A DNA stretch of 64,000 nt. Origin: a virus (Duplodnaviria > Caudoviricetes). Positions within the stretch are counted from its first letter, which is position 1. Each line of letters opens with the position of its first letter. Below are positions 12,590 to 16,359 of the stretch, in pieces. Location: the IMG/VR virus record IMGVR_UViG_3300020048_003360, positions 144,023 to 208,022 of that record, one strand, 5' to 3'. A program made the translations under genes and the position numbers. Below the pieces are notes generated by a model. It was given only the letters and a program-made list of their open reading frames with translations, did not search any database and was not told the DNA's origin.

Positions 12590-12624
12590 TGGTGGGCCCG
12601 CCCGGACTCGAACCGGGGACCAAA
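12590..12624 (-). pseudogene. Orphan tRNA 3' half (Ile-like acceptor)
   Basis: TTGGTC-CCCGG-TTCGAGT-CCGGG-CGGGCCC-A-CCA; no matching GGGCC(C/T)G 5' half found in the cluster. Confidence 0.8.
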
Positions 12625-12628
12625 TTAT

Positions 12629-12796
12629 TTAAATTTCTACGTCAGCTCTTACAAGTGGTCTATTCATAAATTGTTCTGCAACTAATCTATGTTCATAAAC
12701 ATAACCTTCCATTGCTCCAGATCTTACAGCTTCTGGATGTTCAGGATTATAAACCATTCTATATTCATTAACAATACGTAATTCTTTTTTAGCCAT
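12629..12796 (-). pseudogene. Truncated HNH homing endonuclease (N-terminal fragment)
   Basis: MAKKELR...YNPEHP...GYVYEHRLVAEQFMNRPL then a stop before the HH..N..DN..NL motif. RBS ACAGGA precedes ATG 12796; the track's longer start lies inside a tRNA. Confidence 0.65.
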
Positions 12797-12818: not shown

Positions 12819-12894
12819 TGGTGGGACCGGAAGGAGTTGAACCTTACATTCTTGGCTTTATGAGAACCCTGCTTCACCGTTAAGCTACAGTCCC
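12819..12894 (-). tRNA. tRNA with CAT anticodon (Ile2 or elongator Met; not initiator)
   Basis: GGGACTG-TA-GCTT-AACGGTG-AAGC-A-GGGTT-CTCATAA-AGCCA-AGAAT-GTAAGG-TTCAACT-CCTTC-CGGTCCC-A-CCA. G1-C72 pair; G27.A43 mismatch; bulged T-stem. Confidence 0.75.
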
Positions 12895-12929
12895 AATTTA
12901 CTACATTTAACTTCTCAAAAATTGTGCTC

Positions 12930-13443
12930 CTTAAGATATTTCTATCTATACTGTCATTCTAAATCAAGAGCATTATTTAGAATCTAGACTATGTTATCAC
13001 CATATATTTGGTAGCTCTTACTCACCACACAGGTGGCTTGCTCAAATACTTAGGTATTCCGTTTCTAGTCTCTACACCTTCCTGTTATTCCTTAACGACT
13101 GTACCACTTCGATCCGTGGCCTTGGTAGGAATACTACGAGTTCAGGCTGGCTCGGCGCTGGCATATTAATAACTACCTTAGAACAGTCTTACTGCCGATG
13201 ATTTTTCTTCGGAAAACCATGAAACCATCATCTGCTTCAGATACTTATTAACTTAGCTTTTGCCGAATTTACGGAAATACTACTAGCGGGTTTCCCTTGA
13301 TACGTTACGCCTTTTCGCGTTCGTCTTACTATACCTGATTCCATTAAGGACTCACAAACATTTCTGCTTGCTCTTCGGCGATTATCCTATCCAGGTTATC
13401 GAAAACTGACTACCATATCATTTTTCGCTAGTGACCTATTACG
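12930..13443 (-). ncRNA. Group I intron-type ribozyme A (no tRNA exons)
   Basis: P2 ACTAGCG/CGCTAGT; P3 TTCCGT/ACGGAA; J3/4 AAA; P4 TTCGGC/GCCGAG; P6 GCCTG/CAGGAAGGT; P7 GACTA/TAGTC; P9 hairpins; ends ...TTAAG. Strongly similar to the tRNA-Leu intron. Boundaries inferred by alignment. Confidence 0.85.
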
Positions 13444-13454
13444 ACACTTTATTC

Positions 13455-13721
13455 TCACACTATATTAAACCTACCATCAAACAATAGGTTTTCATTTTGT
13501 AATCTGATGTCTCCAGAGACGTTCAAATAGTAGGCATCCTTAACCACGGAGCCGTCTTCTAGATAAACATTTATCCTTAAGACATGATTCCCAAGCGTTT
13601 CCTTTATGTCCAGAAACACTCTATCCTTTACAGTAACTCTGGTAGTTACTTTAAGGTCTTCACTTTCTCCAATAGTGAAGTCATTACCAATAAAATACCT
13701 AATCATTTGCACCTCCATCAA
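13455..13721 (-). CDS. Hypothetical 88-aa protein between two group I elements
   Basis: GAGGAG RBS upstream; TGA at 13455-13457. Confidence 0.65.
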   Translation of the reverse strand: MMEVQMIRYFIGNDFTIGESEDLKVTTRVTVKDRVFLDIKETLGNHVLRINVYLEDGSVVKDAYYLNVSGDIRLQNENLLFDGRFNIV

Positions 13722-13747
13722 TTAACTCCTCATTAAAGATTGTGCAC

Positions 13748-14200
13748 CTTAGAATGTTTCCATCCATTTAGTCATTTATGGTCAAGTGTATTACCATAAA
13801 TCTAGACTATTATGCTCCTTCATTAACTGTGGTTCATATTAGAGCTTCTGACAGCCATATGGTATTTTAGGTACATCAGAATTTAAGTACCACAACTACT
13901 AATCTACTAGACAACTAACTTAGGATTCCGTTTTTATAATCACACCTTCCTGTCGTGTCTTTGGAGGTACTTCTATCCTCAGTACTTTATGGGGTCTTAG
14001 TCCCACTACAGGCTTGGCTCAGTATCAACATATTCTTTAAAATAGGCTCTTCATTACATTCGGGCAACCCTGCTAGAACTAACCGAATGAATTCTATTTA
14101 CTCAAACCCGTGGCAGGATTTAACTTCGATTTGAGTACCGTCTCTTAAAGAACTTAGTTTTTACTGATTTTACGGAAACTGATATCTTTGATTAGATCAT
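13748..14200 (-). ncRNA. Divergent group I-like RNA B
   Basis: P3 TTCCGT/ACGGAA; P4 TCAGT/ACTGA (compensatory relative to TCGGC/GCCGA); CCAAGCCTG...CAGGAAGGTG; P7 GATTA/TAGTC; P9 TTTATGGT/ACCATAAA; ends ...CTAAG. J6/7 is 3 nt shorter and no clear P1. 5' boundary approximate. Confidence 0.7.
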
Positions 14201-14234
14201 TGTGTCATTTAGAATGGTAGGTAAAGGAATTAAG

Positions 14235-14489
14235 TTTTTACACTACCTTTTTAACCTATTTTATCCATAGCCACGACTACAGTGCTAATCTAAAGTAACC
14301 AGTGCGGTACTATGCTAGGTGCATAATTGTATAACTCTGCCTAGCGCAAAGCGTGTGTCCTTTACTACTAAAGTTCACGGGAGTAAATGAAGCTATGGAC
14401 TTCATTCAGGGATTTTTCTTCTGATTATGCTCATTGCCGAAGATCCACCCGTCGCACGGTCGTATACCCATGTCCATAGCATGGGTTCC
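14235..14489 (-). ncRNA. Candidate structured RNA of unknown class
   Basis: GC-richer non-coding tract with hairpins ACCCATG/CATGGGT and CCGT/ACGG, plus a GCTATGGA...TCCATAGC...GCTATGGA alternative pairing. Confidence 0.35.
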
Positions 14490-14639
14490 CTACTTGCTGA
14501 AAATCTTTCTACACGAGTAATCTATCACTCGCTTATCGTTTATCATGTAAGACAGTCCCACATAATTACATCCTGATTCGGTTTCTATCTTGGAGTAAAT
14601 AACTTCTCCAGATATAAGGAAAATAATGAGTAGATACAT
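14490..14639 (-). CDS. Small protein with hydrophobic N-terminus (49 aa, MYLLIIFLISGEVIYSK...)
   Basis: Read manually; AAGGAG RBS; TAG at 14490-14492. Confidence 0.6.
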   Translation of the reverse strand: MYLLIIFLISGEVIYSKIETESGCNYVGLSYMINDKRVIDYSCRKIFSK

Positions 14640-14656
14640 TTATCTCCTTACTTAAA

Positions 14657-14706
14657 TGGCCTCCCGTAGTGGACTCGAACCACTGACCCCAATCTTAGAA
14701 GGATTG
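14657..14706 (-). pseudogene. tRNA-Arg(TCT) fragment lacking its own 5' acceptor strand and D-arm
   Basis: CAATC-CTTCTAA-GATTG-GGGTC-AGTGG-TTCGAGT-CCACT-ACGGGAG-G-CCA, beginning 6 nt after the CCA of the preceding element. Confidence 0.75.
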
Positions 14707-14712
14707 TTTAAT

Positions 14713-14794
14713 TGGCGGGACAGGTGCGACTCGAACGCACATACTCCAATTACGCGGTTAACGACGGCTTAGAAGGCCGTTGCGATACTGCCCC
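14713..14794 (-). tRNA. Atypical tRNA-Arg(TCT)-like RNA with no D-arm and a 23-nt variable region
   Basis: GGGGCAG-TATCGCA-ACGGC-CTTCTAA-GCCGT-CGTTAACCGCGTAATTGGAGTAT-GTGCG-TTCGAGT-CGCAC-CTGTCCC-G-CCA. Acceptor, anticodon and T stems all pair. Confidence 0.7.
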
Positions 14795-14804
14795 AATTAT
14801 ACTC

Positions 14805-15056
14805 TTACCTAGCAGACGCCATACCCATGGTGGCTCTATGGATAGGTACTACATTGTCGCCGCTCTTCCTCGCCAACTCTCCATAGCAATCAGCTCTGAG
14901 CAACTCTTTCAGTCGCTCAATTGTGTCCTTATCGGAAGTTACGACCAAGTGCAAAGAAGCTGTATCATCGATGTTAGAGTCAATTACAGCTAACTGCACT
15001 GTTTCTTGCTTCGTTGAGTGTGTGGGCGCAAACATCCGTGTAAACCAGTTAAACAT
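14805..15056 (-). CDS. Hypothetical protein
   Basis: 83-aa ORF, AGGA RBS, interspersed among tRNAs. Confidence 0.6.
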   Translation of the reverse strand: MFNWFTRMFAPTHSTKQETVQLAVIDSNIDDTASLHLVVTSDKDTIERLKELLRADCYGELARKSGDNVVPIHRATMGMASAR

Positions 15057-15092
15057 TTTATTCGTCCTATTATTTAGTTGATCGATGTCTTA

Positions 15093-15359
15093 CTACTGAG
15101 TACTCTCTACAGATTCACTACTAACTTCCTTTGCTGAGATCATCCATTCAAGAAAGCTATGATACACACTCATTGCTTCATTTTCATCAACCGGCACTCT
15201 AATTCCTCTCACATAGAAGCCATCTTCAGCAATTCTAAGGACAGGTTCACCAGTTTTAGCATGGTGAAAGATTACAGAATTAGGATATAACTCTGCAGCA
15301 GTCATAGCCACTTCTGAATGAACTTCGTTAATTGCCACTGCATCCACATTTTCTTCCAT
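15093..15359 (-). CDS. Hypothetical protein (start MEENVDAV...)
   Basis: The track's longer ORF begins inside tRNA-Thr; AAGGA RBS precedes ATG 15359. Confidence 0.6.
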   Translation of the reverse strand: MEENVDAVAINEVHSEVAMTAAELYPNSVIFHHAKTGEPVLRIAEDGFYVRGIRVPVDENEAMSVYHSFLEWMISAKEVSSESVESTQ

Positions 15360-15379
15360 GATCATTCCTTTAAATAAGA

Positions 15380-15454
15380 TGGTGCCCAAGGTGGAAGTCG
15401 AACACCAGATCCCCGCATTACAAGTGCGGTGCATTACCATTCTGCTACAAGGGC
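15380..15454 (-). tRNA. tRNA-Thr(TGT), degenerate, possibly pseudo
   Basis: Perfect anticodon arm CCGCA-CTTGTAA-TGCGG and terminal CCA; two T.T mismatches in the acceptor stem and an irregular T-stem. Confidence 0.65.
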
Positions 15455-15467
15455 TATTTATTAAATA

Positions 15468-15770
15468 TTAATTTGATTGACCAATTGCCATATCGACAAT
15501 ATCTTTCAATGTAATATTATCTTTATACATTCCGTATTCATACTCCTCTAATGGAAAATGAATTAAACTAAACGCCTTACTTAGCTTTTCAGGATCTGAA
15601 ATAACAACAGTTTCTTCTAGCTTAACTTGAGTTTCAATATTAACAGATTCCAAATGAATCTTATTAGTACCAATTATTTCAACATTTGTTTCAAAAATCT
15701 TTTTCATTTCATTTCCTAAATAACCTTTATTCCATAAGGATTTAAAAAGCTCTTGTAATTCCAAGATCAT
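15468..15770 (-). CDS. Hypothetical protein
   Basis: 100-aa ORF; AAGGAG RBS directly after a tRNA 5' half. Confidence 0.6.
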   Translation of the reverse strand: MILELQELFKSLWNKGYLGNEMKKIFETNVEIIGTNKIHLESVNIETQVKLEETVVISDPEKLSKAFSLIHFPLEEYEYGMYKDNITLKDIVDMAIGQSN

Positions 15771-15787
15771 TTTGTTCTCCTTATGGA

Positions 15788-15820
15788 AATCCGGCGCTCT
15801 ACCAACTGAGCTATTGAGGA
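15788..15820 (-). pseudogene. Orphan tRNA 5' half (Asn-type), ending at U33
   Basis: TCCTCAA-TA-GCTC-AGTTGGTA-GAGC-G-CCGGA-TT. A TCCTC start is typical of tRNA-Asn; no 3' half in the window. Confidence 0.75.
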
Positions 15821-15830
15821 TTATTGTAAC

Positions 15831-16359
15831 TGGTGGGGGTAATCGGAGTCGAACCGATATACCTTGCGGTGAGGGATTTTACTTACCACTTCGGTTTTCA
15901 CCGCCAGTCTTAGCCCTTGCGGGTTATCTTCTGTTCGTGGTCTGGACTATGCTATCGCCATATTACGATTTATCACCTTGACTTGACTTTACAAGTGATA
16001 GTTTATAGTCAACCGTAACGTAGGCATTCCGTCTCTAGTCTCTACACCTTCCTAATCATTAAAGCGGAGTTCTCGCTGTCTTTCGACGGATATTTCCAAC
16101 ATTAACAGTTTAGGCTTGGCTCGGCGTTGGCATACACTCATTCGTATCTTTTCAGGAACCTATCGTTTCGGTATTACCAACCTGCAAAGAATTTTAACTA
16201 TTGAGTGTGAAGCGTTCGCCGAATTTACGGAAATACTACTAGCGTCTTTCGATTGAGTCATTACGCCAAGACAGGAAAAGCCCGCCGAGACTACCAACTC
16301 ATTTTTCGCTAGTGACCCATTAAAGAGTCCCTTGTGTCTACCAATTTCACCATACCCCC
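15831..16359 (-). tRNA. trnL: tRNA-Leu(TAA) interrupted by a group I intron (exons 16359-16326 and 15881-15831)
   Basis: Joined exons give GGGGGTA...AGGGA-CT^TAA-AA-TCCCT-CACCGCAAGGTAT-ATCGG-TTCGACT-CCGAT-TACCCCC-A-CCA, with perfect stems and a long variable arm. Confidence 0.9.
15882..16325 (-). ncRNA. Group I intron (444 nt, no ORF) in tRNA-Leu
   Basis: P1 GACU|C...GGGUC with U.G at the splice site; P2, P3 TTCCGT/ACGGAA, P4 TTCGGC/GCCGAG, P7 GAGACTA/TAGTCC; terminal G at 15882. Confidence 0.9.

Follow-up and report, generated by a model that had tools for sequence, protein, structure and literature searches.

A putative IC3-type group I intron between U33 and U34 of a tRNA-Leu(UAA) gene in an uncultured aquatic phage

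Introduction

Group I introns of bacterial tRNA genes are classified by the host tRNA and by numbered sites in the anticodon loop. The classical bacterial types, Leu.3Ug (CUU/a...g/AAAA), Arg.5Ug, fMet.2Ug and Ile2.5Ug, all belong to subgroup IC3 (Williams 2020, bioRxiv 10.1101/2020.01.27.920355). For phages, the published picture is different. According to a 2014 review, every phage intron known at that time lay in a protein-coding gene (Hausner 2014). Introns in phage tRNAs were described as unreported until the examples of Devoto 2019, which were themselves not classed as group I. Searches of the literature turned up no account of a phage tRNA gene with a group I intron, which agrees with an earlier impression that such introns are rarely reported.

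The present analysis concerns a stretch of 64,000 nucleotides, hereafter the window, taken from a 208-kb IMG/VR virus record (IMGVR_UViG_3300020048_003360, positions 144,023 to 208,022) whose completeness is rated at 78%. The favoured and very probable reading is that a 444-nt group I intron of the IC3 lineage, with no ORF of its own, splits a functional tRNA-Leu(UAA) gene on the minus strand between U33 and U34, in the genome of an uncultured jumbo phage from an aquatic habitat.

The split tRNA-Leu(UAA) gene

All parts of the gene lie on the minus strand. The 34-nt 5' exon (16326..16359), defined by ARAGORN with its intron option, by the joined exons and by the sequence, holds the 5' strand of the acceptor stem, the D arm, the 5' strand of the anticodon stem, C32 and U33, and ends in GGGACU. 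It is followed by the 444-nt insert (15882..16325), which begins with CUUUAAUGGGUC and ends with GUGGUAAG; its assignment as an ORF-less, IC3-type group I intron draws on the covariance model R1, on covariation and on Pfam searches. The 51-nt 3' exon (15831..15881), delimited by ARAGORN, the sequence and the relatives, begins with UAAAAUCCCU. It contributes U34-A35-A36 and the rest of the anticodon arm, the long variable arm, the T arm, the 3' strand of the acceptor stem, A73 and an encoded CCA, so that the gene ends in ACCA.

The original prediction held that removal of 15882-16325 restores a perfect tRNA-Leu(UAA), and this is what ARAGORN finds. The joined exons form an 85-nt canonical class II tRNA-Leu(taa) with perfect stems: an acceptor stem of 7 bp, an anticodon stem of 5 bp, a T stem of 5 bp, a long variable arm, A73 and CCA. 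ARAGORN with its intron option, a check proposed beforehand, calls tRNA-Leu (taa) i(35,444) on the raw DNA and places the intron within the 7-nt anticodon loop, between U33 and U34. With default settings ARAGORN does not call the gene in the window, and the Rfam tRNA model does not detect the split gene there either; the expectation that tRNA scanners would miss it was therefore justified. The predicted spliced junction is GGGACU^UAAAAUCCC (also written GGGACU^UAAAAUCCCUCACCGCAAGG; the caret marks a splice site here and below), and it is made phage-specific by the variable arm, CACCGCAAGGUAU.

The splice site has no slack. The base after U33 in the sequence is C, so that only the 3' exon can supply U34; directly before U34, the unspliced sequence has G, the end of the intron (15882). 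A junction after the C, giving the anticodon CAA, and one at 34/35 were considered and rejected: they would need C at position -1 and U as the last intron base, and the 5' exon contains no U34.

Among the predicted products of the window are a major head protein of 739 aa, large virion proteins, part of the beta subunit of a multisubunit RNA polymerase, a thymidylate synthase and a UvsX-like recombinase, a gene content that matches a jumbo phage. The GC content is 34.5%. UUA, said at the outset to be frequent, accounts for 54% of the leucine codons (53 per 1000 codons). Since UUA is the commonest leucine codon, a tRNA-Leu(UAA) is plausibly useful to the phage.

Position of the insertion site

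For comparison, 185,579 prokaryote species genomes were scanned with a broad R-block pattern, which yielded more than 120 bacterial loci. Most of the 106 intron-split tRNA calls that ARAGORN made on them are tRNA-Leu(UAA) genes cut as GGACUU^...G^AAAAUCC. The remainder are mainly tRNA(CAU), tRNA-Arg and tRNA-Thr genes cut after position 36, together with tRNA(CAU) genes cut after U33; the tRNA(CAU) loci cut after 36 read GGACUCAU^...G^AAUCC. The sampled bacterial loci and the published catalogue (Williams 2020) both put the cyanobacterial and plastid trnL(UAA) site at U34/A35, as had been stated for it.

In the window, the 5' exon ends in ACU, followed by C, and the 3' exon begins with UAAAA, so this is not the Leu.3Ug site. 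Compared with the classical trnL site of bacteria and plastids, the insertion is shifted 5' by one nucleotide. The internal guides are displaced likewise: GGUC in the window intron pairs with G30-U33, whereas GAGU in the bacterial introns pairs with A31-U34.

This position is not new for tRNA-Leu. By its sequence, the window intron is assigned to type Leu.2Ug, which is listed in the same catalogue; the seed alignment contains a row Eba21.Leu.2Ug with the P1 GGACU^C...GGGUCC (Williams 2020). The original prediction was thus right about insertion after U33 and overstated the novelty of the site, for which Leu.2Ug with the same P1 already stands in that seed. It was mistaken in calling the position the Azoarcus tRNA-Ile type: the Azoarcus intron is Ile2.5Ug, inserted after position 36, and the classical type located after U33 is fMet.2Ug.

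Fold of the intron and its group I identity

The splice-site helix P1 (16314..16329) is recovered in the minimum free energy (MFE) fold of the precursor. Exon bases G30-A31-C32-U33 and intron base C1 (16329..16325) pair with the internal guide GGGUC (16318..16314), and U33.G forms the wobble at the 5' splice site, so the U.G pair claimed for P1 is present. Exon and guide are the same in 10 relatives; in the relative L009, whose exon ends in CAU, the guide is GUG. P1 is followed by an enlarged P2 domain (16239..16312), composed of P2 (CUAGCG/CGCUAG), the side helix P2.1 (UGAGUU/GACUCA) and a small hairpin with a GAAA loop (16252..16245). The pairs of P2 and P2.1 covary across 21 relatives. The side branch is missing from the relatives L006 and L032, whose P2 is a plain hairpin, as in bacterial introns.

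The core follows on the same strand. The 5' strand of P3, UUCCGU (16227..16232), precedes J3/4 AAA and has its partner at 16032..16027; the pairing is formed in 96.9% of cases, and all six pairs change on both sides between phage (UUCCGU/ACGGAA) and bacterial introns (CCGCUC/GGGCGG). P4 (16120..16223) pairs UUCGGCG (16223..16217) with CGCCGAG (16126..16120) and encloses P5/P5a (16213..16130), both on the basis of covariation. P6 (16051..16114) has a variable extension, and 3/3 of its pairs covary. Next comes the 'R' block GUGUAGAGACUAGAGACGGAA (16027..16047), which comprises J6/7, the 5' strand of P7 (GACUA) and the 3' strand of P3 (ACGGAA), and was located by pattern scans and by alignment to the bacterial consensus GGUGUAGAGACUAGACGG. 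P8 (15957..16025; GCC.../...GGC), with an extension, is again supported by covariation. The 'S' block (15945..15956), J8/7 GAUAGCA and the 3' strand of P7 (UAGUC), is invariant and is placed by homology, not by covariation. In their classical extent, the group I R and S blocks of the insert are GUGUAGAGACUAGA and GAUAGCAUAGUCCAGACC.

At the 3' end, P9 (15882..15941; ACCAC/GUGGU) encloses a hairpin with a GAAA loop (15903..15892), followed by A-A and the terminal G at 15882. The stem of this hairpin covaries (CG/UA, GC/AU). The alignment to model R1 stops at GUGGUAAG^UAAA, in line with the claim that the intron ends in G. Both GAAA loops, at 16252..16245 and 15903..15892, are conserved. At the level of sequence, some relatives show a receptor-like P5 motif, GCUAAA...UAUGC, where the window intron has GCUUCA.

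Besides P1, the MFE fold of the precursor recovers the acceptor stem, P2, P2.1, P3, P4, P5a and P6. For the entire precursor the MFE has a z-score of only -1.46, an uninformative value that is counted against the favoured reading. A P10 pairing between UAAA of the 3' exon and UUUA of the intron is possible in the window; it is not conserved in the relatives and was therefore dropped as evidence. The open reading frames that overlap the intron are only 33 to 69 aa long, and the three longest (46, 67 and 69 aa) have no Pfam match. The intron thus has no endonuclease ORF; an HNH remnant lies 3 kb away at 12796..12629.

Model R1 was built solely from 36 aligned bacterial tRNA introns. Against the window it matches 15878..16273 over the full length of the model, with 105.5 bits and an E-value of 1.5e-35; in the whole 208-kb record it finds this intron, one weaker second element and nothing else. 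In an alignment of 51 phage and bacterial matches, which is fitted to the model and therefore leans towards its structure, pairing is formed in 87.5% of the cells, and at 31 of 42 pairs both partners change. The alignment has a covariation score of 0.442, compared with 0.149 for shuffled alignments (0 of 500 reach the observed value) and at most 0.085 with slid partners. Changes on both sides between phage and bacterial introns affect P3, P4, P5, P6 and P8. Within the phage family (21 sequences), P2, P2.1, P5, P6, P8 and the P9 hairpin covary, and P3, P4, P7 and P9 are invariant. The model cannot represent P7, which makes a pseudoknot with P3; as P7 and P9 never vary, they are supported by homology rather than by covariation.

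The general Rfam model Intron_gpI (RF00028) gives no match on the window even at an E-value of 10, and relatives reach 23.6-26.2 bits against a threshold of 50. The Rfam group I seed contains no bacterial intron, and cut-offs of 18-20 bits have been used with it (Williams 2020). By R1, covariation and ARAGORN, the insert is identified as a true group I intron that belongs to the bacterial tRNA type (IC3), located after U33 of a phage tRNA-Leu(UAA), as the original prediction had it.

The size of the intron raises the possibility that it is real but not autonomous. Splicing would then need a phage or host protein or a chaperone, or would be timed, and the intron would control how much tRNA-Leu is available in infection. 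Its length is roughly double that of the 190-250-nt bacterial relatives, it carries a P2 side domain specific to the family as well as extensions in P5, P6, P8 and P9, and large peripheral domains of group I introns often bind proteins. The sequence, however, indicates no partner, and no maturase or endonuclease ORF lies inside the intron. The same kind of site is also occupied by L006 and L032 without the P2 side branch and by L007, which has 261 nt and few extensions. Such dependence is considered unlikely, and autonomous splicing of a bacterial-type ribozyme remains the preferred reading.

Relatives and distribution

Scans with the R/P3' signature of the phage family returned 10 viral loci and 29 metagenome loci. 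The family-specific pattern had no match in the 185,579 prokaryote species genomes, a result that holds for the exact pattern and which diverged relatives could escape. Nor did blastn find a related intron among 50,697 deposited phage records, with either the locus or the 3' half of the intron as query.

At least 10 distinct viral or metagenomic contigs, the window included, have a tRNA-Leu(UAA) gene with an intron at this very position; the introns measure 323-729 nt. All ten of these genes give a canonical tRNA once the intron is removed. Their acceptor and T stems differ with full compensation (GGGGGUA/UACCCCC, GCCCGGG/CCCGGGC, CCCCGAA/UUCGGGG), which implies that the exons are under selection as a functional, spliced tRNA.

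Other members of the family are found after U33 of tRNA(CAU) (L007, L018/L026 and L029), after position 36 of tRNA(CAU) (L009, with the guide GUG) and outside any tRNA (L011-L014, L023, L036 and L037). The 28-nt sequence of the joined-exon junction occurs uninterrupted in at least 120 other viral contigs, which, like the R1 score, speaks against a chance resemblance. When 120 viral contigs were examined for a syntenic intron-less allele, none proved to be a close relative of the window phage.

In a tree from the core columns, phage introns separate from bacterial introns. As the alignment is short and a pattern served to choose the phage set, neither a donor nor an order of events is drawn from the tree.

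Several relatives show further peculiarities. L010, the closest relative of the window gene, has a tRNA-shaped insert in the P2.1 loop (minus strand, ~2250-2425). The acceptor-like stem of this insert has 7 bp, its D arm contains GG and its T loop reads UUCGACU; ARAGORN makes no call on it. In the exon-less, intergenic members L011-L014, L036 and L037, a conserved hairpin directly follows the terminal G and is itself followed by a gene start. Its stem covaries around ACUU (GCAUU...AAUGC, GCGUU...AACGC, GUCUU...AAGAC). On the metagenome contig L020 (minus strand, ~120-400), two ribozyme copies stand back to back: GUGGUAAG is separated by at most 4 nt from the next P1/P2 start.

The surrounding tRNA cluster

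A tRNA cluster at 12822-15454 (minus strand) has the anticodons UAA, CAU, UGU and UCU, which match common A-ending codons; in 39 long ORFs, UUA is counted 836 times, AUA 505, ACA 402 and AGA 280. The split gene had been put forward as the sole fully canonical tRNA of the cluster, and of the tRNAs there it does come closest to the canonical form.

Exon-less, diverged ribozyme copies occur in the cluster at 12955-13445 and ~13740-14490 (both minus strand). Copy 2 scores 54.8 bits with R1; copy 3 is seen by alignment alone and has an altered R block. Only 9 nt past the CCA of the tRNA-Leu, a tRNA 5' half (15787-15821, minus strand) provides an acceptor strand, a D arm and the start of an anticodon arm, and runs directly into the ribosome-binding site of a 100-aa ORF (15770..15468). 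No 3' partner for this half (TTGAGGA) was found nearby. A tRNA-like gene at 14716-14794 (minus strand) lacks a D arm, has UCU in its anticodon loop and a long variable region, and reaches 34 bits with the Rfam tRNA model. The tRNA piece that follows it at 14655-14705 (minus strand) is confined to the anticodon arm (also UCU), the T arm, the 3' acceptor strand and CCA. The HNH homing endonuclease remnant (12796..12629, minus strand) is 55 aa long and matches a PHROG profile with an E-value of 3.6e-05, over positions 74-112 of 234 residues; 3' of it, within 12590-12796 (minus strand), lie a lone tRNA T arm, an acceptor strand and CCA. Of the scans for promoters and terminators, those for promoters gave results no better than shuffled sequences.

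A circular RNA from a relative

RNA data are available for a relative. Contig L025 (1-1459) consists of 2.7 tandem copies of a 549-nt unit, in which the terminal G of GUGGUAAG abuts UUAUUGGGUCAC with no exon between them. It is mostly covered (79% to 100% of the sampled words) only by three wetland metatranscriptome runs from three samples, and among the DNA runs none exceeds 9% of its words; a caveat is that RNA libraries can carry DNA. From these three RNA runs (X13-X15), contigs of 579 nt were obtained with a joint going back 549 nt, at depths of 108.6, 31.5 and 3.9. The length fits 549 + 30, as expected of a circular assembly path with 31-letter words. A second contig of one RNA run (depth 5.5) has the same junction and diverges right after the terminal G into a different P2.

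Excised intron circles are a known by-product of group I chemistry. The simplest reading of the 549-nt L025 RNA is an excised intron circle, closed at the terminal G, and its joint shows, in natural samples, that the 3' end of the family introns lies where it was predicted. L025 is only about 61% identical to the window intron in aligned columns. For the window intron, the equivalent circle junction would be GUGGUAAG-CUUUAAUGGG.

The circle also bears on whether such inserts are removed by proteins. Non-group I inserts occur in the tRNAs of Lak phages (Devoto 2019), and the window insert might similarly be cut out and the exons re-ligated by proteins, as with ribozyme-less phage tRNA inserts, its group I-like core being incidental. 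Against this, the insert possesses a complete group I core together with the guide pairing, a U at -1 and a terminal G, all of them conserved, and the circle of the relative closes exactly at the terminal G, as group I chemistry expects. Removal by proteins is thus extremely improbable, and excision by the ribozyme itself is the reading retained here.

Predicted splicing of the window gene

In the favoured reading of a working gene, the guide GGGUC of the folded precursor would pair with exon G30-U33, with U33.G as the wobble, and free guanosine would cut after U33. The terminal G (15882) would next enter the P7 pocket, and U33 would attack the 3' splice site, joining the exons and creating the anticodon loop CUUAAAA. 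The mature tRNA would read UUA, the commonest leucine codon of the phage. The analysis shows where exons and intron meet, how the ribozyme folds, its kinship with bacterial tRNA introns, the conservation of the split gene in many phages and, for a relative, a circular RNA of the kind that excision leaves; self-splicing of the window copy itself is inferred. Since the window intron encodes no endonuclease, it would presumably have spread by recombination or with outside endonucleases.

The intron might instead be dead, a ribozyme that does not splice in a tRNA-Leu pseudogene of a decaying tRNA cluster. Broken tRNA pieces are indeed numerous in the cluster, which also contains an endonuclease remnant and two ribozyme copies lacking exons. 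The RNA runs X5 and X11 hold just 5% of the sampled words of the window phage and are uninformative about it. The exons, however, are perfect, and across 10 lineages they change only with compensation. Every core block matches active-type bacterial introns, and the exon-less copy 2 scores far lower than the window intron (54.8 vs 105.5 bits). The codon read is, moreover, the main leucine codon of the phage. Decay is accordingly regarded as very unlikely, and a functional, spliced gene is the better account of the locus.

A broader reading joins these observations. A phage-borne IC3 radiation, marked by the P3' strand GAGACGGAAU and a three-way P2, would retarget itself to tRNA-Leu 33/34, tRNA(CAU) 33/34 and tRNA(CAU) 36/37 by a change of guide, and would escape from tRNAs as exon-less copies, both in the window cluster and in spacers between genes of other phages; its circles would be abundant, and introns or circles would serve the phage. 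As a whole this is speculative and rather doubtful. If it were true, introns or circles would time the tRNA supply, mark tRNA alleles in phage-phage competition or act as stable RNAs, and the introns would not be neutral passengers.

Comparison with known introns

IC3 tRNA introns of the Leu.2Ug type are already known; the window intron is a further one, carried by a phage and with an enlarged P2 domain. The window locus and its relatives, at least 10 distinct loci at the same site, show bacterial-type tRNA ribozymes established in phage tRNA genes. Standard tRNA finders miss such split genes, so that phage tRNA repertoires are under-counted, and in the window phage the missed tRNA reads its main leucine codon. 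The family also offers natural variants for studying how a guide shifts the splice site by one nucleotide or to other tRNAs.

The closest described system is Leu.2Ug of Eba21 (Williams 2020). It shares with the window intron the tRNA-Leu host, the position after U33, U at -1, the terminal G, the P1 GGACU^C...GGGUC and the core blocks. It differs in coming from a bacterial or metagenome-assembled (MAG) assembly and in its plain P2 hairpin with a GAAA loop. In the window intron, by contrast, P2 is a three-way domain, P3 (UUCCGU/ACGGAA) is distinct and the carrier is a phage genome.

The classical Leu.3Ug introns (IC3) occupy the same host tRNA, with near-identical P4, J6/7-P7 and J8/7-P7 blocks and a near-identical 3' end, ...GGCGG-GAAA-CCGAAGUGGUAAG. 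Unlike the window intron, they cut at U34^A35, and the sampled bacterial introns have 190-336 nt compared with 444 nt. The cyanobacterial tRNA-fMet intron (fMet.2Ug) shares the position after U33 in a different host tRNA, and relatives of the window intron take this very position in tRNA(CAU) (L007, L018/L026 and L029). The Synechocystis tRNA-fMet intron reportedly carries an endonuclease ORF, whereas the window intron has none. The Azoarcus tRNA-Ile intron (Ile2.5Ug) resembles the window intron in its IC3 core, its short P1 and its two GAAA loops, which crystal structure work places in L2 and L9. It cuts tRNA(CAU) after 36, unlike the window intron in tRNA-Leu at 33/34; within the phage family, the Azoarcus-type site is used by L009 with the guide GUG.

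The introns of T4 td, nrdB and sunY, of SPO1 and of Twort are, like the window intron, phage-borne group I introns, and they are self-splicing. Their host genes code for proteins, many of them contain a homing endonuclease ORF, and they fall into other subgroups (IA), whereas the window intron is an ORF-less intron of the IC3 type in a tRNA gene.
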